64,000 bases of DNA from positions 6,091-70,090 of the forward strand of contig CBCPMW010000008.1 in NCBI GenBank assembly GCA_965120375.1, written 5' to 3'. The notes under the pieces were generated by a model. The model was given only the letters and a program-made list of their open reading frames with translations, did not search any database and was not told the origin of the DNA. Position numbers and translations under genes: made by a program. The stretch comes from an uncultured Eubacteriales bacterium. Lineage in GTDB: Bacteria; Bacillota; Clostridia; Oscillospirales; Acutalibacteraceae. Numbering within the stretch: position 1 is the stretch's first letter; each line of letters begins with the position of its first letter. Positions 2,651 to 63,320 of this stretch are shown in pieces.

Positions 2651-4027
2651 TTGATAAGTACGAGCAAAATCAAGTTCAGACAAGAATTGAGTAATTTTAA
2701 GAAGATTGTTATTCAAAAAAAAGCATGCGTAAAAACATATGGTTGTCAGCAAAATGCTTCTGATTCAGAGATGTTAGCTGGAATGCTTGAAGATATGGGA
2801 TATTTGATTACAAAAAATGAAAATGAAGCTGATGTTATAGTGATAAATACTTGTGCTGTGCGAAAACATGCAGAAAACAGAATATTTGGGAATATTGGGG
2901 CTTTAAAGGTCCTAAAAAGCAAAAAACCAGATTTGATCATTGCTGTTTGTGGCTGTATGACAGAGCAAAGTGAGGAAATTGAGAAAATAAAAAATAGTTA
3001 CTCTTTTGTAGATTTAATTTTTGGAACTCATTCTCTAAGTCGTTTTCCTAAACTTTTAGAAGAAACGATTTTTGGTAAAAAAAGGATCTTTATACGTAAT
3101 GACAAAAACGAGAAAATTTTGGAAGGGGTTCCTGTAAAGAGGGGAAGTAAAGTAAAAGCTTTTGTTCCAATTATGTACGGTTGTGACAATTTTTGTTCTT
3201 ATTGTATAGTTCCACATGTAAGAGGGAGAGAAAGAAGCCGGAAATCTAAGGACGTAGTTAAAGAAGTAGAAAATTTACTCAAAAACGGATATAAAGAAAT
3301 AATGCTTTTGGGACAAAATGTAAATTCATATGGTAAGAATTTGGAAGAAGAAATAAATTTTGCTAAACTTTTAAAAAAAATAGATGATTTCCCCGGAGAA
3401 TACAGGATAAGGTTTATGAGTTCCCATCCAAAAGATGCAACTTCCGAGTTAATAGATACAATAGCTTCGAGTAAGCATATATCTAGAGGGATTCATTTAC
3501 CATTTCAGTGTGGGAATAATAGAGTGCTGGGACAAATGAACAGAAAGTATACAAGAGAAAATTATCTTGATATAATTAATTACGCGAGGGAAAAAATAGA
3601 AAACTTGACTTTATCTAGCGACGTTATAGTGGGATTCCCGGGAGAAACTTATGATGAATTTAGGGAAACAATTACCCTTATAAAGGAAGTTAATTTTGTT
3701 TCACTTTTCACCTTTATATATTCCCCTAGAAAGGGAACTTACGCAGCTTCTATGGAAGATCCAGTAAAAAGAGAAGAAAAAGTAAAATGGTTGTCTGAAC
3801 TCCTAAAAGTTCAAGAGCAGATCTCGTTTCAAATTTACGAAAATATGAAAGGTAAGGTTTTCAGGGTCTTAATAGAGTCGAAAAGTGAAAAAGAAAATGT
3901 GTTGCTTGCAAGAACTGATAGCAATATCACAGTAGAAATTAGTGGATCAGAAGATCTTGTTGGAAAGTTTGAAAATATAGAAATTATGAATGTATCTGGA
4001 AGAACGATAGAAGGGAAAATTGTATAA
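2651..4027 (+). CDS. miaB: tRNA-i6A37 methylthiotransferase MiaB (radical SAM MTTase)
   Basis: N-terminal UPF0004 Cys motif region (TYGCQQNASDSE ... NTCAVR ... GCM). Radical SAM CxxxCxxC is present (GCDNFCSYCIVPHVRGRERS), followed by a C-terminal TRAM-like region. The ORF opens at GTG 2615, but that codon overlaps the predicted -10. TTG 2651 has a good RBS, so it was used as the start. Confidence 0.9.
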   Translation: MISTSKIKFRQELSNFKKIVIQKKACVKTYGCQQNASDSEMLAGMLEDMGYLITKNENEADVIVINTCAVRKHAENRIFGNIGALKVLKSKKPDLIIAVCGCMTEQSEEIEKIKNSYSFVDLIFGTHSLSRFPKLLEETIFGKKRIFIRNDKNEKILEGVPVKRGSKVKAFVPIMYGCDNFCSYCIVPHVRGRERSRKSKDVVKEVENLLKNGYKEIMLLGQNVNSYGKNLEEEINFAKLLKKIDDFPGEYRIRFMSSHPKDATSELIDTIASSKHISRGIHLPFQCGNNRVLGQMNRKYTRENYLDIINYAREKIENLTLSSDVIVGFPGETYDEFRETITLIKEVNFVSLFTFIYSPRKGTYAASMEDPVKREEKVKWLSELLKVQEQISFQIYENMKGKVFRVLIESKSEKENVLLARTDSNITVEISGSEDLVGKFENIEIMNVSGRTIEGKIV

Positions 4028-4044
4028 AATTTGGAGGATAAAAA

Positions 4045-4484: not shown

Positions 4485-7124
4485 ATGGCGGAGCATTCTC
4501 CGATGATTAAACAGTACTTAAGTATAAAAGAGCAGCACAAAGATTCGATACTTTTTTTTCGTCTAGGTGATTTTTATGAGATGTTTTTTGATGATGCAGA
4601 ACTTGTGTCGAAAGAACTTGAAATAGCTTTAACTGAAAGAGGATGTGGGCAAGGAGAAAAAGCTCCAATGTGTGGAATTCCTTATCACAGCTGCGAAGCA
4701 TATATAGCAAGGCTTATTTCAAAAGGGTATAAAATAGCTATGTGCGACCAAGTAGGGGATCCATCTAAAAGTAGAGGTTTGGTTGACAGAGAAGTTGTAA
4801 GAGTTATAACTCCTGGAACTGTTATAGAGCCAAACATGCTCGACGAGTCTAAAAACAACTATATTTGCTCTATTTTTGTGGAAGATAATTCGTCTGGAAT
4901 TTGTTTTTGTGATGTTTCAACTGGTGAACTTAAACTTGCAGAGCTTTATGGGTCGGATATAGTACGACAAATTCAAAATGAACTTGGACGATTTTGTCCG
5001 AAAGAGGTTCTAATAGGTGGGAAAATAGCACTTTTAGATTCACTTAAGAGTTTTATGAAAGATAAGCTTTGTTGCAATGTAGAATTTCTAAATCAAGAAT
5101 GTTTTGATCTTGAAGCTTCAATAGATAAGTTTAATAAACATTTTGGAGATAATAAAGTAAGAAGTGATAACATATGCAAAAAAAAGTTTGTTTTAAGGGC
5201 TATAGGCGCATTAATTTTTTATTTAGAAATGACGCAAGAAGCTGGGCTTGAGAGAATAAACAGAATAAAACTTTATAACGATTCTGAGTATATGGGGCTA
5301 GATTTAAATACAATAAGAAATTTAGAATTAGTTGAAACAATGAGAAGTAAAGATAAAAAAGGATCACTTTTATGGGTTTTAGATCAAACAAAAACAGCTA
5401 TGGGTAAAAGACTTTTGAGATCTTGGGTTGAAAGGCCACTTGTAAATAGTGATAAAATAGTAAAGCGACAAGATGCTATCTCTGAAATATATAATGATGC
5501 TATTTTAAGAGACGAGCTTGCAGACATTCTCTGTGGAATTTATGATATAGAAAGATTAATGACAAGAATAACATACAGTTCAGCGAACGCAAGGGATCTA
5601 AAAGCACTTGCAAGTGTTATTCCAAGAATACCAAAACTTAAAAAGGTTATAGAAGGTAAATTGTCTACAATACTCCTATATATTTATGAAAATATAGATG
5701 ATTTAGAAGATATTTTTAAGCTAATTGATGAAGCTATTGTAGACGAACCTCCGTTTTCTGTAAAAGAAGGTGGAATAATAAAAAAAGGGTATAGCGAAGA
5801 AATTGATAAAGTAAAAAATGATATGAACGGAGGGAAAGATATAATTGCCTCAATTGAGGCTAAAGAAAAAAGTAAAACAGGGATACAAAAACTTAAAGTT
5901 GGATACAATAAAATTTCGGGTTACTATATAGAAGTTACGAACTCTTATAAAAAGTTAGTTCCGGATGAATACATAAGAAAGCAAACTTTAACAAACTGTG
6001 AAAGATATACAACTAGTGAATTAAAGGAAATTGAAGGAAGAATTCTAGGAGCAAGGGAAAGAGCAGCTCAGCTTGAGTATGAAGCTTTTGAGAAAATAAG
6101 AGAAAAAGTGGCAAATAATCTCAGAAGAATAAGTAATTCAGCTAATTTAATAGCTTTAATTGATGTTTTAAGATCTCTTGCAGATGTTGCTTCTAAAAAT
6201 GATTTTAAAAAGCCGAAAATAAGTCTAAATGATAAAATTTTGATTAAAGATGGAAGGCATCCTGTAATTGAAACACTTTTAATTAACGAATCTTTCGTTC
6301 CTAACGATATTGTACTTGATAATAGAGAAAATATGATTGCCATAATAACAGGTCCAAACATGGCCGGAAAGTCAACTTATATGAGGCAAGTTGCTTTAAT
6401 TGTTTTAATGGCTCAGATTGGAAGTTTTGTTCCAGCGAGCTATGCTGAAATCGGAATTGTAGACAGTATATTTACAAGAATTGGTGCGTCAGACGATTTA
6501 GCTTCTGGTCAGTCTACTTTTATGGTTGAAATGAATGAAGTAGCTCAAATTGTAAAAAATGCTACAGATAAAAGTCTTCTTATACTTGATGAAATAGGGA
6601 GAGGAACTTCAACTTTTGACGGAATGAGTATAGCAAGGGCAGTGCTTGAATATGTAGCCGATAAAAGTAAACTTGGCTCAAAAACTCTTTTTGCTACACA
6701 TTATCATGAATTGACATCTGTAAGTAGTATTTGTAAGGGAGTAAAAAATTACAATATAGCTGTAAAAAAAATAGGAGATAATATAACTTTTCTTAGAAAA
6801 ATTGTGCCAGGGGGAGCAGATGACAGTTATGGAATACAAGTTGCCAAACTTGCTGGAATACCAGAGTGGATTATATCTAGAGCAAAGGAGGTTTTACGTG
6901 AAATAGAAAACGTAGAAAAATGTTTATCATTTGACCAGCAAAAGTCAAATGATAAACTTGATTCGAAAGAAGAAATTGATCCATATAAAAAATTTGAAAG
7001 TTATAATGAGATTTATGCAGCGCAAAAAATAGTAGAAAAGCTTAAAGAAACAGATGTAAATATGATAAATCCAATGGAAGCTATAAATATACTTTTTAGT
7101 CTTGTAAATATGGTAAAAAGTTAG
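4485..7124 (+). CDS. mutS: DNA mismatch repair protein MutS
   Basis: N-terminus is TPMIKQYLSIKEQHKDSILFFRLGDFYEMFFDDA. Walker A is GPNMAGKSTYMRQ, followed by STFMVEMNE and DEIGRGTSTFDG. Length 879 aa. Confidence 0.97.
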   Translation: MAEHSPMIKQYLSIKEQHKDSILFFRLGDFYEMFFDDAELVSKELEIALTERGCGQGEKAPMCGIPYHSCEAYIARLISKGYKIAMCDQVGDPSKSRGLVDREVVRVITPGTVIEPNMLDESKNNYICSIFVEDNSSGICFCDVSTGELKLAELYGSDIVRQIQNELGRFCPKEVLIGGKIALLDSLKSFMKDKLCCNVEFLNQECFDLEASIDKFNKHFGDNKVRSDNICKKKFVLRAIGALIFYLEMTQEAGLERINRIKLYNDSEYMGLDLNTIRNLELVETMRSKDKKGSLLWVLDQTKTAMGKRLLRSWVERPLVNSDKIVKRQDAISEIYNDAILRDELADILCGIYDIERLMTRITYSSANARDLKALASVIPRIPKLKKVIEGKLSTILLYIYENIDDLEDIFKLIDEAIVDEPPFSVKEGGIIKKGYSEEIDKVKNDMNGGKDIIASIEAKEKSKTGIQKLKVGYNKISGYYIEVTNSYKKLVPDEYIRKQTLTNCERYTTSELKEIEGRILGARERAAQLEYEAFEKIREKVANNLRRISNSANLIALIDVLRSLADVASKNDFKKPKISLNDKILIKDGRHPVIETLLINESFVPNDIVLDNRENMIAIITGPNMAGKSTYMRQVALIVLMAQIGSFVPASYAEIGIVDSIFTRIGASDDLASGQSTFMVEMNEVAQIVKNATDKSLLILDEIGRGTSTFDGMSIARAVLEYVADKSKLGSKTLFATHYHELTSVSSICKGVKNYNIAVKKIGDNITFLRKIVPGGADDSYGIQVAKLAGIPEWIISRAKEVLREIENVEKCLSFDQQKSNDKLDSKEEIDPYKKFESYNEIYAAQKIVEKLKETDVNMINPMEAINILFSLVNMVKS

Positions 7125-7140
7125 GTTGGAGATTTTTAAA

Positions 7141-9231
7141 ATGAAAAGAATAGGAATGCTTGATAAGTGTGTATCTGAAATGATTGCAGCTGGAGAAGTT
7201 GTAGAGCGTCCAGCGTCAGTTGTTAAGGAGCTTGTAGAAAATTCAATAGATGCAGGAGCGAAAAAAATAACTGTAGAGATAAAAAATGGCGGAATTTCTA
7301 TGATAAAAATTTCGGATAACGGAAGTGGAATTCATAAAGATGATATAAAGATAGCTTTTTTTAGGCACTCAACTAGCAAAATTCAGAAGATATCGGATTT
7401 AAATTCAATAGAAACTTTGGGATTTAGAGGGGAAGCTTTGTGTTCAATTTCCTCTGTTTCTCGTGTTGAACTTATAACAGCTCAAGAAGGTCAGGATTTT
7501 GGGGTTAGATATCTGATTGAGGGTGGACAGGAAAAATGCTTTGAAGATGCAGGAAGGTCTCGCGGGACAACTTTTGTAGTTAGAGATCTTTTTTTCAATA
7601 CACCAGCAAGATTAAAATTTCTAAAGAAAGAAAGTACAGAAGCAAGTTTAGTATCTTCAGTTGTCGAAAAAATTGCTTTATCACACCCTGAAATTGCAAT
7701 TAGTTTTGTAAAGGATGGTAAAATATTAGCAAATACACCCGGAGACGGAAAAGTTTTATCGTGTGTGTATTCTATTTACGGCAGAAATATTTTTGAAAAA
7801 ATGATAGAAATTGAGTATAAAGCTAAAAACGTAAGTGTAACTGGCTATATTACTAAACCTGAAGCTGCAAGACCAAATAGATTACTTCAAAATTTTTTTG
7901 TTAACCGTAGATTTGCAAAAGTAAAAATTGCAAGTCTCGCTCTGGAAGAGGCTTTTAAAGGTTTTATGATGGTAGGGAAACATCCGGCTTGTGTAATTTA
8001 TATAGATATTCCTTATGCAACAGTTGATGTAAACGTTCATCCAGCTAAAATAGAAGTAAGATTTGAGAATGAAAAAGTTATATTTGAGGCTGTGTACAAT
8101 GCTGTAAGAAATGCACTGAAAAATGACAGGTCAAGAAAAGAAATAAGTTTAAGTGCTGGAAAGTATTTTCATAGCGAAGAAGATACTAGGAATGAAATGA
8201 AAAAAACAGTTGATCAAAATGTAAAAAATTGTACCAAAGGTTCAGTAGAGACTTATAACGGACGAGAGGTCAAAACCAAAATTTTTGATAGTTTATGTAG
8301 ACCAAATGAATCTATTTTTTCAGCTAGATTTTCAGATTTTACAAATGGCGAAGGGTTTTTAGAAAAAACTCATAAAATTTCTGTAAAAAAGCCTGATATA
8401 TTCTGGAGTAGTGAGGATTTAGGAAATTTTAATGAAGAAGAGCATCAAAAAAATACGGACCAAAACAGTGATATTTTCCAAAACGAAAAGTTTAATAGTA
8501 GCGAAGAAACAAGTGTGCTAAAAAATTTTAATTTTAAAGAACATACGCTAAAAAATGATGAAGAGAACGAATTTAAAAATATTAAAGTTCAAAGTTCGGA
8601 AGATGATAAATCTAAAAAAGAAAATTTTGAGGACATTAACTTAAGTGAAGTTATAGTTAAGGAGAAGTCTAAAAAAGTATTGGGGGAAATTTTTGAGTGT
8701 TATATTGTAGTTGAAGAAGAAGATCGTATAATTTTTATAGATAAACATGCAGCACACGAGAGAATTTTATATAATAGACTCAAAGAAAACGAAAGAGAGA
8801 TTACCTCGCAAGTTCTTTTAAGTGCAGTTGTGGTTTCTCTAGATAAAGAAAGTTACTATGCTGCAATAGAAAATGTAGATTTATTTTCTAAATCTGGATA
8901 CCAAATAGAAGATTTTGGGAATGGATCTGTTATAGTAAGAAGCGCGCCTACTTATCTTAGTGAAGCAGAGATCGAAAGTACAGTGATTGAAATTTCTGGA
9001 TATATAGTAAATAATAAAAGTGATCTTAGCACAAAATATCTTGGTTGGCTTTACCATAATGTTGCTTGCAGGTCAGCTATGAAAGCAGGAGAAAAAAGTA
9101 GTGAAGAGGAAATAAAAAGTTTGCTGGATATGCTTGAAAATAGTCCGGAAGTTGTGTACTGTCCACATGGAAGACCAGTTTATATAGAACTTAAAAAGAA
9201 GCACATAGAAAAACAGTTTGGGAGGAGCTGA
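7141..9231 (+). CDS. mutL: DNA mismatch repair protein MutL
   Basis: GHKL ATPase N-terminus (IAAGEVVERPASVVKELVENSIDAGA ... DNGSGI ... GFRGEAL). A long low-complexity linker follows, then the C-terminal dimerisation/endonuclease region (DKHAAHERILY ... ACRSA ... CPHGRP). The ORF opens at TTG 7126; ATG 7141 was preferred by comparison with typical MutL N-termini. Confidence 0.95.
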   Translation: MKRIGMLDKCVSEMIAAGEVVERPASVVKELVENSIDAGAKKITVEIKNGGISMIKISDNGSGIHKDDIKIAFFRHSTSKIQKISDLNSIETLGFRGEALCSISSVSRVELITAQEGQDFGVRYLIEGGQEKCFEDAGRSRGTTFVVRDLFFNTPARLKFLKKESTEASLVSSVVEKIALSHPEIAISFVKDGKILANTPGDGKVLSCVYSIYGRNIFEKMIEIEYKAKNVSVTGYITKPEAARPNRLLQNFFVNRRFAKVKIASLALEEAFKGFMMVGKHPACVIYIDIPYATVDVNVHPAKIEVRFENEKVIFEAVYNAVRNALKNDRSRKEISLSAGKYFHSEEDTRNEMKKTVDQNVKNCTKGSVETYNGREVKTKIFDSLCRPNESIFSARFSDFTNGEGFLEKTHKISVKKPDIFWSSEDLGNFNEEEHQKNTDQNSDIFQNEKFNSSEETSVLKNFNFKEHTLKNDEENEFKNIKVQSSEDDKSKKENFEDINLSEVIVKEKSKKVLGEIFECYIVVEEEDRIIFIDKHAAHERILYNRLKENEREITSQVLLSAVVVSLDKESYYAAIENVDLFSKSGYQIEDFGNGSVIVRSAPTYLSEAEIESTVIEISGYIVNNKSDLSTKYLGWLYHNVACRSAMKAGEKSSEEEIKSLLDMLENSPEVVYCPHGRPVYIELKKKHIEKQFGRS

Positions 9232-25568: not shown

Positions 25569-26170
25569 TTTTTGCATCTGTTGCTCTACCACTTGTACTA
25601 CTTTTGATTATGGCTAAAGGAAAGCAGCGAAATATGATTGGATTTATTGTAATTGGAATAATATGCGCTATCTTATCCTTTGAGATAAACAGTCTGACAA
25701 AATATATTTATAATGTCAACGAGTTTGATTTCAGAGTGTTTGTTTCCCCTATAACAGAAGAAGTAATAAAATTTATACCAATTTTATTTTTTGCAATCCT
25801 TGTTTCCAGGAGAAGAGATATAATAATGCAGTTTTCTATGGCTTTGGGAATAGGATTCGCAATACTTGAAAACATATATCTCTTAGTTGTAAACGCTGAG
25901 TTTGTAAATATATTCTGGGCACTTATGAGAGGACTTTCAACCGGGCTTATGCACGGCATGACCACAGTTGCAGTAAGTTACGGTATAAGTTTTATTAAGA
26001 AAAAAAAGCTTTTTTATACAGGGATTTTAGGGCTTTTATGTCTAGCTTTCACTTACCACGGTATATACAATTTGTTAGTAGAATCTGGGTACGGATATAT
26101 TGGCTTTATGCTTCCTATTTTTACTTATATTTTCATGCTAAACACTATAAAAAAGGTACCTGTACATTAA
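25556..26170 (+). CDS. PrsW-family intramembrane metalloprotease (putative)
   Basis: Polytopic protein with EEVIKF (EExxK), GFAILEN and two His motifs (LMHG, YHGIYN) placed in TM segments, as in PrsW/CPBP-type proteases. Confidence 0.5.
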   Translation: MVYIIFASVALPLVLLLIMAKGKQRNMIGFIVIGIICAILSFEINSLTKYIYNVNEFDFRVFVSPITEEVIKFIPILFFAILVSRRRDIIMQFSMALGIGFAILENIYLLVVNAEFVNIFWALMRGLSTGLMHGMTTVAVSYGISFIKKKKLFYTGILGLLCLAFTYHGIYNLLVESGYGYIGFMLPIFTYIFMLNTIKKVPVH

Positions 26171-27915
26171 TGCACCGCATTTTCGGAAAATTGATTTTGA
26201 TGAAGGTTATAATAAAACCCTTTATTTTCAAGCAAAGCGGAGTGATTGCCTATTTCCACTATTTTACCGTGATTTATCACGACTATTTTATCAGCGTTTT
26301 CTATTGTAGATAGCCTGTGGGCGACAATTATGCTAGTTTTTCCTTGCATAAGTTTGTTGAAAGCGTCTTGGACTTTAAGCTCAGTTCTAGTGTCAATGTT
26401 ACTTGTTGCTTCATCCAAAAGTAGAATTTTAGGTTTTATTAGCATAGTTCGTGCAATTGATAAAAGCTGTTTTTGTCCTTGAGAAATGCTGCAACCGTTT
26501 TCATAGAGTATAGTATCATATCCATCTTCCAGTTTTTTTATAAAGTTGTGGGCATTTGCAAGTTTAGATGCACTTATTATTTCATCAAGCGAAGCATCTG
26601 GTTTTCCGTACGCTATATTATCTCGAACTGATGCATTATAAAGCCATGTATCTTGTAAAATCATACCAAATAAACTTCTTAAATCCTTAAGATCAAAAGC
26701 GTCTATATTAACACCATCAATTTTTATGTTTCCCATACTTGGAGAATAAAAACGCATAAGAAGGTTAATTATGGTTGACTTTCCACACCCAGTTGGACCG
26801 ACTAAAGCGATTCTTTCTCCGGGATTTATATTTAAATTGAAATCACTTATTACAGGTTTTCCTGGTATATATGAGAAGAACAAATTTTCTATTTCTATCT
26901 TACCTTTACAATCAGGAAGTGTTTCATTTCCACTAGATTCATGACTTTCTGAGACTAAATGTATAAATTCTAAATATCTGTTTGTTGACGCAACTGCTTC
27001 TTGGATTTGTGTAATAACACTCATTATGTCGGTGAAAGGACGAGTATACTGGGCAACATAAATTAATATTGAGGATATACCCCCTATGGTTATACTACCT
27101 GATTTAAGTAGTCTATAAACGCTAGCAGTACCTACAGATGCATAAATTATTAGTGATATAAATCTAATAGAAGGATTTGCAGTTGACGATAAAAATTGCG
27201 ATTTAACTCCACATTTATGCATTTTTTCATTTATTTTTTTAAACTTTTCTATAGCCGTGTCTTGAAAATTGAAAGCATTAACTACAATTTGATTTGATAT
27301 CATTTCTTCTGAAAGACTTATAAGCCTACCTTGTGCGTTTGCGTATTCTCTAAAACTTTTGTATGAATATTTTGTAACAAACCATGAAATAAATACAATA
27401 AGAGGAGTTAAAAGTAAAACTAGAAACATTATTTGGGTGCTTATTAGTCCTAAAAGAATTATTGAACCGAGTACTACTGTAATACCGGGAAACACTTGAG
27501 TTAAAAATTGAAAAATACCATCACCTATCATCTCGAGATCATTTATGGTACGGCTGACTATTTCTCCATGTGGAGTGGAATCAATATTATTTAGCGTCGT
27601 AGAATTAACATTTCTAAATATTTTTTCTCTTAAAAGTGTTTCAGTTTTATACGCAAGTAAACCACTATAAAATGCAGATAAAAAACGCGAAACAGTTCCT
27701 ACAACTGTAAAAATTGCAATTATTAATAGATTAAAAAATATATCATCAAATTGAACTTCGCCTGGGTACAAGGCAAAGTCTAAAGTTTTTCCAATTAAAC
27801 CTGAGATAATAAGAGCAGCACTTGTAGCTATAATTTCAGATGCAATAGCAGTAGACAAGCAAAAAGGGAAAAGCTTTATTTTATTTACTATATATTTTAT
27901 AGCATTATTTTTCAT
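26167..27915 (-). CDS. ABC exporter, fused permease/ATPase (type I exporter half-transporter)
   Basis: Six-TM N-terminal domain. NBD motifs are GPTGCGKST (Walker A), ISQGQKQLLSIAR (signature) and LLLDEATS (Walker B). Confidence 0.9.
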   Translation of the reverse strand: MKNNAIKYIVNKIKLFPFCLSTAIASEIIATSAALIISGLIGKTLDFALYPGEVQFDDIFFNLLIIAIFTVVGTVSRFLSAFYSGLLAYKTETLLREKIFRNVNSTTLNNIDSTPHGEIVSRTINDLEMIGDGIFQFLTQVFPGITVVLGSIILLGLISTQIMFLVLLLTPLIVFISWFVTKYSYKSFREYANAQGRLISLSEEMISNQIVVNAFNFQDTAIEKFKKINEKMHKCGVKSQFLSSTANPSIRFISLIIYASVGTASVYRLLKSGSITIGGISSILIYVAQYTRPFTDIMSVITQIQEAVASTNRYLEFIHLVSESHESSGNETLPDCKGKIEIENLFFSYIPGKPVISDFNLNINPGERIALVGPTGCGKSTIINLLMRFYSPSMGNIKIDGVNIDAFDLKDLRSLFGMILQDTWLYNASVRDNIAYGKPDASLDEIISASKLANAHNFIKKLEDGYDTILYENGCSISQGQKQLLSIARTMLIKPKILLLDEATSNIDTRTELKVQDAFNKLMQGKTSIIVAHRLSTIENADKIVVINHGKIVEIGNHSALLENKGFYYNLHQNQFSENAVH

Positions 27916-27929
27916 CCCAAAACCTCCAT

Positions 27930-35556: not shown

Positions 35557-36600
35557 ATGGTTTTTGATAACAAAATATTTGATAATCTAGAAAATTTTTA
35601 TTTTTCTACGAGGAAAAAAGTTAGAAATTTGGATAGATTGATGGTTTTATTTTTAGCTTTTTTAGTAAGTTCAATCTATATATTATCTTTTTTTGGATTG
35701 ACTCAAGGATCGAAAATATTTATATTTTCTGTATTAGTCTTGAGCTGGTCTATTGTTTCGATTTTAGGTTTAGAAAATTATATAAAAAAACTTCAAAAAG
35801 GATCAGATATTTTCAAGAAAAAATCTGAAAATGAATATAAAAGCTATAAGCAAAATACCCCAATAAAAGGAGATGTAATAGTAGTTAAATCTGGTGAGAC
35901 AATTCCAGTTTATGGAAAGATTGTTGAAGGGAAAGCTTTATTGGATGAAAGTAAAATAACAAAATCAAAAAATCCAATCTTTCGGGAAGAAGGTTTAGTT
36001 TTTTCTGGATCTACTTTAATATCAGGTTGGCTTGTAATAAAGGTTTTAGGAGAAAATGAATCAGATACTGCAGAGAACATAAAATTATTTGACTTATTTC
36101 CAGAAAAAAATGCAGGTAAAAATGAAAATGTATTAACTTTATTTAAAAATCTGTTAACTTTAATTCTCACAGTGTCTGTGTGTTCGTTATATTTTTATGT
36201 CCATTTCTTGATTTATCAAAGTGGAGGTAGCGAAAAATTACCGGTAATTTTCTTTATATCTTTTTTATTATGTTTGATTCCAACCACATTTTGGGGACTT
36301 TTGTCAGTTGCAGCAAAATATTTTTCATTTATTCCCCTTTTGTTTTCCCTACTGTACCCCGTAGTTTCACCACTCAATATAATGAATATTTCAAGTCTAG
36401 AAAGTGCTGCAATAGCTTCTCTGATTTACGATATTTTACTGATGATTTTTTTGATATTTTTTGACAAAATTATGATTAAACTTAGGGAGAATTTGACAAA
36501 AAGTAATGTATTGGCTTTTTTTATTTTTTTAGGAGTTGTTGTTCCATTTTTTGTGATTAAAGCAGTAGATATCGTGATTTCATCTACAGGGATTTTTTAA
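35557..36600 (+). CDS. kdpB: KdpB-derived membrane protein lacking the P-type ATPase phosphorylation (P) and nucleotide-binding (N) domains
   Basis: 347 aa, against about 680 aa for KdpB. It retains the N-terminal TM pair and an A-domain-like block (KGDVIVVKSGETIPVYGKIVEGKALLDESKITKSKNPIFRE...GSTLISGWLVIKV). TM4 (LLCLIPTTFWGLLS) is retained and fused directly to the C-terminal TM bundle (AKYFSFIPLLFSLLYPVVSPLNIMNISSLESAAIASLIYDILLMIFLIFF...). No DKTGT, TGDN or GDGxNDxP motif is present. Confidence 0.8.
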   Translation: MVFDNKIFDNLENFYFSTRKKVRNLDRLMVLFLAFLVSSIYILSFFGLTQGSKIFIFSVLVLSWSIVSILGLENYIKKLQKGSDIFKKKSENEYKSYKQNTPIKGDVIVVKSGETIPVYGKIVEGKALLDESKITKSKNPIFREEGLVFSGSTLISGWLVIKVLGENESDTAENIKLFDLFPEKNAGKNENVLTLFKNLLTLILTVSVCSLYFYVHFLIYQSGGSEKLPVIFFISFLLCLIPTTFWGLLSVAAKYFSFIPLLFSLLYPVVSPLNIMNISSLESAAIASLIYDILLMIFLIFFDKIMIKLRENLTKSNVLAFFIFLGVVVPFFVIKAVDIVISSTGIF

Positions 36601-36616
36601 AATGGGGGAATAGAAT

Positions 36617-37216
36617 TTGTATAAAATAAAAGAAATAATTAAAAGAGCATTCATTTTTACTGTTATAATTACGTTTTTTTGCTTAATTTATACTTTGGCT
36701 GTAACTTTAATTGCTCAATGTTTTTTTCAAAAAAAGGCAAATGGTAGTCTAATAGAAAAAGATGGCATAAAATATGGAAGCCTCTTAATTGGACAAAATT
36801 TTACTTCTAATGTTCACCTATGGGGAAGATTTGATAAAATTCAAGAAACTTATAAAGAACCACAAGATTCTAGTGAAAGTCAAGTTTCAAATTCAAAAGC
36901 ATCTAATATTTCTCCTGTTAGTGTAAAGTATAAAAAAATTATAGACCAAAGATTGCAAAAAATTAAAAATGCACATTCAAACGATTTGAAAGTTCCAGTT
37001 GAACTTGTTACAGGATCAGCCAGTGGTTTAGATCCGCATATATCTTATGATGCAGCTGTTTATCAAGCTCAAAGAATAGCAAAAAATAGAAATTTAAGCC
37101 TAGATAAAGTAGTTGAAATTATAGATAAATGCTCAGAGAAAAAATTTTTAGGAATTTTTGGAGAAAAAATAGTAAATGTTCTTTTAGTAAATTTATATTT
37201 GGAAGGAATATTATGA
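36617..37216 (+). CDS. kdpC: potassium-transporting ATPase subunit C (KdpC)
   Basis: N-terminal TM segment, then ANGSLIEKDG...LIGQNFT, VPVELVTGSASGLDPHIS and NVLLVNLYLE. TTG start follows RBS GGGGGAA. Confidence 0.88.
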   Translation: MYKIKEIIKRAFIFTVIITFFCLIYTLAVTLIAQCFFQKKANGSLIEKDGIKYGSLLIGQNFTSNVHLWGRFDKIQETYKEPQDSSESQVSNSKASNISPVSVKYKKIIDQRLQKIKNAHSNDLKVPVELVTGSASGLDPHISYDAAVYQAQRIAKNRNLSLDKVVEIIDKCSEKKFLGIFGEKIVNVLLVNLYLEGIL

Positions 37217-62480: not shown

Positions 62481-63320
62481 ATGTCAGGTAAAAGTAAGGA
62501 TGATAGTTATTTAAAAAATAGTAAGATTGACAAAGAATTTGATTATCTAAACACGGTAATAAAACAGTCTAGAAAATGGGATTCTATAGATATTCTTAAT
62601 GACCTTATTGAAAGGTGTAGAAAAACAAAATCTCCTAAGATGGCAGAGATGGGAACAATTTTTGAAACGTTACTACGCAAATATGTTGAATGCAAAGAGT
62701 GCTATTACTACAATGGTATACCTAGAGGTAATTATAAAATAACTGGGAATCCGTTTGACAAGCTTTTAACTTCTAAACAGGAAAAACTCGTAAAAGAGTA
62801 TATAAGTCCAGAACTTTTTAAAAAGATGACAGTGGAACTTAGAACACTTGGAAAATATTTAAAAGGAGCTTGTACAATTGAAGATATGACGGTTTATAGA
62901 GGAATTCCTTATGAGGTTTTGCGATCGTTAATGGGTAGTGTGAGAATAAGTTTTCCGGATTTGGGTAGGTTTTTAAAAGGAGAAGAAAAAGGTGCTGTTA
63001 AACGCGCTAGGCTTGATGAGCTTAAACACGCTTTGGAAGAGGTTGAATCCCGGAATCCTATAACAAGAGAAAAATCTTTTATGAGCACTAGTGAGAAAAG
63101 GTACGTCACGTGGGGTTTCGGAATAGTTCGTCTTGATATTACCGTTCCTAAAGGAACAAAAGGAGGACTGAAGTGCAACACCATATTAACCCATAATAAG
63201 TATGCAGAAGAAGTTGAGGTACTTTTTCCTCAGGGGACCCAGTTGAAATGGAAAAGAGGCGGCTTTACGAATTTTTTTAATCTGAGTCAGTTTTTGTATT
63301 TCGACATTGAGGTGGTTTGA
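62481..63320 (+). CDS. ADP-ribosyltransferase-like protein (R-S-ExE class, C3/VIP2-type fold)
   Basis: 279 aa. The ordered catalytic triad motifs are VYRG (R140), FMSTS (S202-T203-S204) and EEVEVLFPQGT (E244-x-E246). Spacings are 62 and 40 aa. The N-terminal region of about 130 aa is helical, and there is no signal peptide. Confidence 0.55.
   Translation: MSGKSKDDSYLKNSKIDKEFDYLNTVIKQSRKWDSIDILNDLIERCRKTKSPKMAEMGTIFETLLRKYVECKECYYYNGIPRGNYKITGNPFDKLLTSKQEKLVKEYISPELFKKMTVELRTLGKYLKGACTIEDMTVYRGIPYEVLRSLMGSVRISFPDLGRFLKGEEKGAVKRARLDELKHALEEVESRNPITREKSFMSTSEKRYVTWGFGIVRLDITVPKGTKGGLKCNTILTHNKYAEEVEVLFPQGTQLKWKRGGFTNFFNLSQFLYFDIEVV

Follow-up and report, generated by a model that had tools for sequence, protein, structure and literature searches.

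What becomes of a potassium pump operon when its P-type ATPase subunit loses its catalytic core? This question is raised by a 64,000-nucleotide stretch of contig CBCPMW010000008.1 (the window), from an uncultured Eubacteriales bacterium, in which the gene between kdpA and kdpC encodes only 347 amino acids (aa), compared with about 680 aa for KdpB. The gene and its product are designated kdpB' and KdpB' here. By sequence comparison, the P-type ATPase subunit has been inactivated and most of it removed by deletion, and selection maintains all three genes in a small monophyletic group of low-GC, Firmicutes-like, gut-type bacteria that are uncultured. The three genes probably specify a maintained ATPase-less KdpA-KdpB'-KdpC membrane complex, whose role would most likely be that of a passive K+ pathway.

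The deleted core of KdpB'

The locus consists of three co-directional open reading frames (ORFs), each with an intact ribosome-binding site in front of it.

33712-33756, plus strand: terminator-like hairpin TATTCCC...GGGAATA plus a T run, closing the upstream 991-aa gene; common, by alignment, to the related locus L093 described below
33826-35532, plus strand: kdpA (568 aa), channel-like K+-binding subunit; Pfam KdpA match and alignment to E. coli KdpA
35545-35551, plus strand: Shine-Dalgarno AAGGAGG, 5 nucleotides (nt) before the kdpB' ATG, read in the sequence
35557-36600, plus strand: kdpB', 347-aa ATPase-less KdpB remnant
36617-37216, plus strand: kdpC, 199 aa, TTG start after GGGGGA

KdpA matches PF03814 at 572 bits and TIGR00680 at 481 (cut-off, 387.7), and KdpC matches PF02669 at 183 bits and TIGR00681 at 161.8 (cut-off, 152.55). 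KdpB' lies far below the KdpB equivalog TIGR01497 (103.5 versus a cut-off of 527.9) and below NF010609 (83.7 versus 1323). Its single Pfam match is to E1-E2_ATPase (PF00122, residues 104 to 252), with no HAD/hydrolase domain and no PF00702. Using phmmer against the KdpB chains in the PDB, two collinear blocks were identified, in which KdpB' residues 90 to 251 correspond to E. coli residues 110 to 273 and residues 243 to 346 correspond to 575 to 681. With E. coli KdpB as the tblastn query, residues 32 to 273 were placed at nt 35623 to 36309 and residues 585 to 677 at nt 36313 to 36582. The parts of kdpB' are arranged as follows.

35629-35805, plus strand: M1-M2 helical pair, residues 25-83; AlphaFold2 helices 25-44 and 53-83, predicted local distance difference test (pLDDT) 85-93
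35806-36102, plus strand: degenerate A-domain remnant, residues 84-182; PF00122 match, AlphaFold2 strands
36103-36288, plus strand: M3 and the periplasmic half of M4, ending at the conserved CLIPTT
36304-36315, plus strand: deletion junction; E. coli KdpB residues from about 274 to 584 gone (P and N domains and cytoplasmic halves of M4 and M5)
36289-36588, plus strand: M5-M7 bundle, residues 245-344; phmmer block against E. coli 575-681, AlphaFold2 helices 245-273, 281-309 and 316-344

Reading the motifs by position, TKSK was found in place of TGES at 35959 to 35970, followed by LLCLIPTTFWGLLS at 36265 to 36306 and SVAAKYF at 36304 to 36324. The DKTGT motif with Asp307, TGDN, and GDGxND are all missing, and the nucleotide-binding N domain has been deleted, with the beta core of the A domain, GDVIVVKSGETIPVYGKIVEG, being retained in the remnant. 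As Pro242 (equivalent to Pro264, mid-M4) and Lys254 (equivalent to Lys586, mid-M5) are 11 residues apart in KdpB', the cytoplasmic halves of M4 and M5 have been lost along with the P and N domains. Around the ion site, Cys261, Pro264, Thr265, and Lys586 (E. coli numbering) are present, Asp583 is absent, and Asn624 is replaced by Asp. An AlphaFold2 model of KdpB' alone (pLDDT, 76; predicted template modeling score [pTM], 0.65) was used for secondary structure only. It contains helices M1, M2, and M3, a short M4a (residues 230 to 240), a 4-residue break, M5 to M7 (the helix after the break spanning residues 245 to 266), and a beta-rich A-domain stub. The best PDB fold matches of the model were KdpB chains.

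These results bear out most of a sequence-only reading of the same stretch. That reading had described a short ORF between kdpA and kdpC, an N-terminal transmembrane pair and A-domain block that jumps at nt 36304 to 36315 into the C-terminal bundle, and the lack of DKTGT, the N domain, TGDN, and the GDG motif. Its coordinates for TKSK were exact, its view that the canonical-site Asp is replaced in SVAAKYF agrees with the absence of Asp583, and the profile searches that it proposed gave PF00122 as the only domain. Its statement that all transmembrane helices are retained holds for M1 to M3, M4a, and M5 to M7 but not for the cytoplasmic halves of M4 and M5.

Recurrence of the architecture and selection on its genes

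The identical 347-aa protein was found on 22 contigs of separate metagenome assemblies, each time between the same kdpA and kdpC, and a deletion introduced by assembly was rejected on this basis. A second kdpB' allele, in locus L096, encodes 8 amino acid differences from the window. Beyond this population, the architecture is rare. None of approximately 138 kdp loci from species-representative genomes and Joint Genome Institute (JGI) metagenomes had the arrangement seen in the window; a full-length, motif-bearing kdpB followed kdpA, and nearly all of the short KdpB frames were cut at contig ends. No homologue of the 347-aa protein with more than 50% identity was identified by HMMER among 1.8 billion representative proteins, and a word-indexed single-sequence search returned only its own cluster and two weak P-type ATPase matches. 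Scanning the GTDB species genomes with KdpA gave no relative above 45% among the matches listed, and scanning JGI metagenomes with the clade KdpA alignment gave no clade member among the matches listed, the maximum being 46%. The full-text literature searched, also for dead or pseudo-KdpB, contained no account of a KdpB family that is truncated or has lost its ATPase.

The best HMMER matches included short KdpB-like proteins encoded by AT-rich DNA and without any catalytic motif (P0019, 411 aa; P0039, 424 aa; P0023, 457 aa), and a KdpA profile search brought in two more KdpA lineages. Four further species-level lineages carry kdpA, a short motif-less kdpB' (411 to 462 aa), and kdpC where the contig allows.

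L093 and L094 (the one related locus with long flanks): kdpA, kdpB' (411 aa), kdpC
L091, L092 and L177: kdpB' (424/428 aa), kdpC; L177 also with upstream kdpA
L095: kdpA, kdpB' (457 aa)
L178: kdpA, kdpB' (462 aa), kdpC cut by the contig end
L179: same KdpA as L178; contig stops 21 codons into the next gene

Pairwise identity among the five lineages is 51 to 76% for KdpA, 51 to 61% for KdpC, and 28 to 52% for KdpB'. In a neighbor-joining tree of 56 KdpA sequences the five were monophyletic with a bootstrap of 100/100, the nearest canonical KdpA (47% identity) being that of the Clostridium tertium group. Substitutions common to the clade at otherwise invariant KdpA positions (F69L, A141P, L178F, A265S, and loss of E370 and R400) agree with this grouping. 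The window and L093 also share five upstream genes in the same order, encoding an LRR_5 protein, a 216-aa protein, a PrsW protease, a CIS_tube-like protein, and an acidic protein of 940 to 990 aa, with 30 to 68% identity between the syntenic proteins.

All five KdpB' proteins lack TGES, Asp307/DKTGT, TGDN, and GDGxND, and all retain the seven-helix membrane part. What remains of the cytoplasmic domains differs. L095, L177, and L178 keep approximately 70 to 110 residues of degenerate P-domain sequence, with GALAIGPTEK aligned in L095 where the DKTGT segment would be; the window keeps none, and L093 has a 40-residue Lys/Asn-rich linker. The A domain can still be recognized in the window and L093; in the others, most of it has been deleted or has given way to low-complexity sequence. 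As motif loss is common to all five and the remnants differ, the simplest history would be that the subunit was inactivated once, in their common ancestor, and that its cytoplasmic domains then eroded in frame and independently in each line.

The kdpB' frames of 347 to 462 codons are open in all five lineages, with no internal stops or frameshifts; 7 to 56 stops occur in the five alternative frames, and the chance of an open frame given the base composition is 2e-14 to 2e-20. The ratio of nonsynonymous to synonymous substitution rates (dN/dS) ranged from 0.18 to 0.39 across comparisons. Single-nucleotide polymorphism counts for kdpB' in L001 to L010 are biased, as these loci were retrieved by protein identity, and only the L096 comparison was used. 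Between the window and L096 there are 10 synonymous and 9 nonsynonymous changes, giving a dN/dS of 0.24 (binomial test against neutrality, p = 0.003; p = 0.002 when pooled with L091/L092), and L095 versus L091 gave 0.23. In the least saturated between-species pair, L095/L177, kdpA has a dN of 0.15 and a dS of 0.89, and the dN of kdpB' is 0.28 in the membrane part and 0.46 in the cytoplasmic remnants. Clade pairwise identity follows the same pattern, at 40% in the helices (42 to 44% in the M1-M2 pair), 55 to 60% in two periplasmic loops, and 23% in the A remnant, which also has many deletions. An alignment of four proteins sharing 31 to 37% identity with that of the window contains 48 invariant columns, including Cys261/Pro264, LYP..LNI, and K..D..IF.

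The rates of the three subunits were compared with those of 98 canonical loci in which kdpA, kdpB, and kdpC are all complete, giving 4753 pairs. At a KdpA identity of 50 to 55%, canonical pairs share 63.5% identity in KdpB (minimum, 54.7) and 44.7% in KdpC, whereas clade pairs share 25 to 34% in KdpB' and 51 to 56% in KdpC. Positions at least 90% conserved in the canonical set (family-conserved positions) were retained as follows.

KdpC, 41 conserved positions: canonical proteins keep at least 35; clade 38-39, window 38, L178 31 (contig-cut)
KdpA, 166 conserved positions: canonical proteins keep at least 151; clade 120-134, window 120, the lowest of the clade
KdpB', 301 conserved positions: canonical proteins keep at least 275; clade 54-92 (18-31%)

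By these measures, the constraint on KdpC equals that in working pumps, that on KdpA is mostly intact, and that on KdpB' is weak. KdpB' is estimated to be changing about twice as fast as working KdpB, yet under purifying selection that is strongest in the transmembrane part. The sequence-only reading had regarded the flanking KdpA, and especially KdpC, as well conserved (here 120 of 166 and 38 of 41 positions) and the locus as a maintained ATPase-less complex, not a fresh pseudogene. With collinearity to KdpB, recurrence of the locus in many assemblies, four further lineages carrying kdpA-kdpB'-kdpC without stops or frameshifts, a dN/dS of 0.24 between the window and L096, and a canonical KdpC, the latter view is supported.

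The L096 allele of kdpB' (positions 3001 to 4044 of that locus) differs from the window at 19 nucleotides. Its dS of 0.046 is far above that of the flanking kdpA and kdpC (0.014 to 0.016), which suggests an imported or recombinant allele.

The ion path and what the complex may do

For the roles of individual residues we relied on Hussein et al. (2025; PMC12629597) and Silberberg et al. (2021; PMC8385062). The KdpA filter glycines G233, G234, G345, and G468 are kept in the window, with G232 replaced by Ala, and all five lineages retain the filter glycines and Arg493. Glu370 lies where the KdpA-KdpB inter-subunit tunnel begins (PMC12629597); it is Glu in 51 of 51 canonical proteins and G/K/G/G/N in the clade (Gly in the window); in E. 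coli, E370K raises the Km approximately 3000-fold (PMC12629597). In KdpB', Cys239 and Pro242 (equivalent to Cys261 and Pro264) are invariant in the clade. The ion-site residues vary, Asp583 being absent/D/N/N/A, Lys586 K/K/K/Q/I, and Thr265 T/N/V/V/T, as do Phe232 (L/F/C/A/V) and Thr75 (I/T/T/I/F). KdpA Arg400, which we take to form the coupling-helix salt bridge with the P domain of KdpB, is Arg in all 51 canonical proteins and K/E/K/K/K in the clade (Lys in the window). In E. coli KdpB, D583N and K586Q leave little to no activity, and D583A splits ATP without transport (PMC12629597). The loss of Glu370 and Arg400 and the variation at Asp583/Lys586/Thr265, with the filter and KdpC kept, indicate that the tunnel-to-KdpB ion route and the contact between KdpA and the P domain have been abandoned and the periplasmic entrance (filter plus KdpC) has been preserved.

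The distribution of changes within KdpA is uneven. Canonical-invariant positions changed in at least three of the five lineages are enriched in residues 339 to 401 (14/35 versus 26/170; Fisher p = 0.002) and 505 to 545 (8/13; p = 0.0007) and depleted in residues 111 to 338, all three segments having been picked post hoc, after the data were seen. Constraint was released in the D3M2 region, the part that makes up the gate in KtrB/TrkH.

We infer that the complex no longer pumps; it cannot run the Post-Albers cycle and hence is functionally no P-type ATPase. Most likely it would instead let K+ pass at low affinity and without ATP, as a channel or uniporter powered by the membrane potential. Of the two kinds of role suggested by the sequence-only reading, a K+ pathway or a sensor, the sequence evidence thus leans toward the former, with K+ passing through KdpA and KdpB' no longer transporting ions. 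KdpA would be the conducting subunit and KdpC its obligatory periplasmic partner, and the membrane domain of KdpB' would act as a structural scaffold rather than an ion-handling site. K+ could leave to the cytoplasm by a re-opened direct path through KdpA or, in the window, by the void that the deletion created where halves of M4 and M5 would be. That the locus records a natural pump-to-channel conversion, in which KdpA, KdpC, and the vestige of a P-type-ATPase membrane domain came to form a K+ channel or uniporter that works on its own, is a more specific proposal that we put forward tentatively.

Several observations weigh against a maintained passive pathway. The direct cytoplasmic exit is closed in canonical KdpA (PMC8385062), and the Lys at KdpA position 370 in L093 would disfavor the tunnel route. 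The AlphaFold2 model fits KdpB loosely, with global template modeling scores of 0.3 to 0.54 in the fold search, and between-lineage synonymous sites are saturated (dS, 1.3 to 1.8). In the population of the window, KdpA has 12 nonsynonymous and 7 synonymous segregating sites, not significantly below the neutral expectation (p = 0.10), and its variable residues do not avoid conserved columns. The KdpA of the window is also the most diverged of the clade and has changes next to the filter where canonical KdpA does not vary (N114G, W115F, T230N, N231S, and G232A), and thus this lineage may be further relaxed. A recent relaxation of constraint on KdpA in the species may be involved.

Three of these changes, N114G, W115F, and G232A, are common to the window and L095 (positions 1066 to 2802). 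L177, the sister of L095 (76% KdpA identity), is canonical at these positions, and a parallel retuning of the filter is suggested, or else gene conversion. G232 and Q116 are the classical determinants of KdpA affinity and selectivity. Across the population loci (L001 to L010 and L096) there are 10 KdpA proteins compared with 2 each for KdpB' and KdpC, and the KdpA haplotype of the window bears several minority alleles (N105, A111, H130, and G158).

A different use of the same parts, which we consider unlikely, is that the Kdp complex is kept for a non-transport role, as a K+ sensor or receptor or a structural membrane complex in which KdpA binds K+ without conducting it. Such a role would fit the loss of constraint at Glu370 in the tunnel entrance and at Asp583, Lys586, and Thr265 in the ion site of KdpB, with the filter and KdpC kept, as well as the lack of an open cytoplasmic exit in canonical KdpA (PMC8385062). 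Also in its favor are the genes for the CIS_tube-like and large acidic proteins, which lie directly upstream of the operon in the window and L093/L094 and, to judge from weak similarity at the C terminus, may do so in L095 and L177 too. However, no signaling domain or partner (kinase, cyclase, or RCK) was found in KdpA, KdpB', KdpC, or the products of neighboring genes, and the terminator-like hairpin stands between the upstream gene and kdpA. This hairpin (33712 to 33756) implies that the kdp genes have their own start region. We know of no precedent for a Kdp-derived sensor.

Another idea is that KdpA and KdpC form the functional unit and that KdpB' is a useless protein, its frame staying open only because a premature stop would lower the expression of kdpC by polarity or translational coupling. 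This would account for a protein that evolves far faster than any canonical KdpB, does not conserve its ion-site residues, and keeps shrinking through in-frame deletions. A dN/dS of 0.18 to 0.35, well below 1 and lower in the helices than in the remnants, together with the 48 columns invariant across four proteins, speaks against it, and complete in-frame removal of kdpB' would escape polarity, yet it is seen in none of the five lineages. In addition, kdpC has its own ribosome-binding site 6 to 7 nt ahead of its start. We regard this explanation as improbable.

Continued ATP-driven pumping, with a separate gene providing the P and N domains in trans or a second intact kdpB elsewhere in the genome, is more doubtful still. 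Split enzymes do occur, and only 64 kb of the genome is visible, a point that counts against the passive pathway as well. However, no separate P/N segment was found in the window by tblastn with the E. coli P/N query (best E = 0.18). TGES is destroyed in all five lineages, Ser162 and Asp583 are lost, and lineages with a partial P domain have lost Asp307 (GALAIGPTEK). The Arg400 contact with the P domain is gone from KdpA, and the M4/M5 stalks that would bear that domain are deleted in the window. That the gene is a functionless decaying relic or an assembly deletion, as a half-missing gene with no catalytic motif and the hints of relaxed KdpA constraint within the population might imply, is hardly credible given its identity on 22 contigs of separate assemblies, open frames and start signals in five deeply diverged lineages (dS > 1.2), and significant purifying selection on recent changes (p = 0.003).

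Surroundings of the operon and known systems

The window otherwise resembles an ordinary Firmicutes-type chromosome with a GC content of approximately 30%, carrying miaB, mutS, mutL, miaA, divIVA, ileS, lspA, ppk, eno, and pgm, together with the housekeeping genes tig, clpP, clpX, lon, obg, ymdB, and the gene for RNase Y. Outside its own population, even ClpP has no relative that reaches 90% identity. Neither kdpDE nor other K+ transporter genes, and no TrkA_N or RCK gene, were found in the 64 kb. No riboswitch was detected in the intergenic region 33681 to 33825 (Rfam, no match at E <= 1), and the promoter scan upstream of kdpA did not rise above the shuffled background. A kdpF gene was not found, the 145-nt stretch before kdpA having just one 11-codon ORF; the KdpF peptide gene upstream of kdpA is not universal among Kdp systems.

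Directly upstream, a CIS_tube-like protein (PF19266, 34 bits) and then the 991-aa highly acidic protein are encoded at 29764 to 33680, and the corresponding genes of L093 lie at 4499 to 8080. The gene for the 991-aa protein contains a 48-nt tandem repeat (4.9 copies, 32438 to 32670) of SPERDLLADEIIDEVD units. The acidic protein had no Pfam or PHROG match, the CIS_tube-like gene had no PHROGs match, and no other contractile-injection genes were found near the latter. Two ABC-transporter genes (ABC_membrane plus ABC_tran) occupy 26167 to 29729 on the minus strand, between the PrsW and CIS_tube-like genes, and this pair is absent from the otherwise syntenic L093/L094. Farther away, the ORF at 62481 to 63320 encodes an ADP-ribosyltransferase exoenzyme-type toxin domain (PF03496, E = 3e-9), and class A RNase P RNA at 488 to 838 on the minus strand (RF00010, 256 bits) is the sole Rfam gathering-threshold match in the window.

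If the pump-to-channel conversion is correct, KdpA would be able to conduct K+ into the cell without KdpB catalysis, KdpC would have a role independent of ATP hydrolysis, and N114G/W115F/G232A in two non-sister lineages would represent adaptive retuning of affinity. The clade bears on what KdpC does and on whether KdpA conducts alone; here evolution appears to have performed the ATPase deletion experiment. With KdpC fully constrained without the ATPase, and KdpA residues 339 to 401 and 505 to 545 (with Glu370 and Arg400) released, the clade may help to tell the parts needed for ion binding and assembly from those needed for energy coupling. It would also be an example of a P-type ATPase turned pseudoenzyme scaffold, and the 347-aa KdpB' would be a minimal natural construct handy for structural and electrophysiological work. 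Annotation pipelines will call such genes ordinary or partial kdpB, leading to a wrong prediction of high-affinity, ATP-driven K+ uptake.

Degenerate catalytic motifs are also found in the full-length KdpB homologues P0026, P0051, and P0033, but these are 674 to 705 aa long and belong to unrelated lineages. P0026 and P0051 have DKSAA, TGKN/TGQV, and GHCASEA/DDDSNDA, and P0033 has GKTGT. The neighbor of the P0026 gene (L181, 4489 to 6606) encodes a cation-chloride cotransporter (CCC); kdpA is missing directly upstream, and the contig ends approximately 30 nt after the P0026 gene. Before the P0033 gene (L182, 3410 to 5434) there is a kdpA, but kdpC is missing, and the contig carries genes for BamE and ankyrin-repeat proteins as well. 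These homologues are sporadic and do not occur as conserved A-B'-C units, and there is no sign of maintained complexes.

The closest known system is KdpFABC, the P1A-type ATPase of E. coli (PDB 5MRW, 6HRA, 7NNL, and 9OC4), which has the same operon order of kdpA, kdpB, and kdpC. The window resembles it in that KdpA and KdpC exceed their family thresholds and KdpB' is collinear with M1 to M4a and M5 to M7 of KdpB. It differs in lacking the P and N domains, DKTGT, TGES, TGDN, GDGxND, Asp583, and the KdpA residues Glu370 and Arg400. To our knowledge, no chimera of a channel with a P-type pump other than KdpFABC has been described. KdpA belongs to the SKT superfamily (PMC8385062), and if our reading of a passive pathway is right, the complex would share with the KtrB/TrkH members of that superfamily a fourfold pseudo-symmetric pore through which K+ moves down its electrochemical gradient without ATP hydrolysis. 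Unlike KtrB/TrkH, the pore subunit of the window is KdpA by hidden Markov model, and its partners are KdpC and a P-type remnant, not a cytoplasmic RCK ring (KtrA/TrkA).

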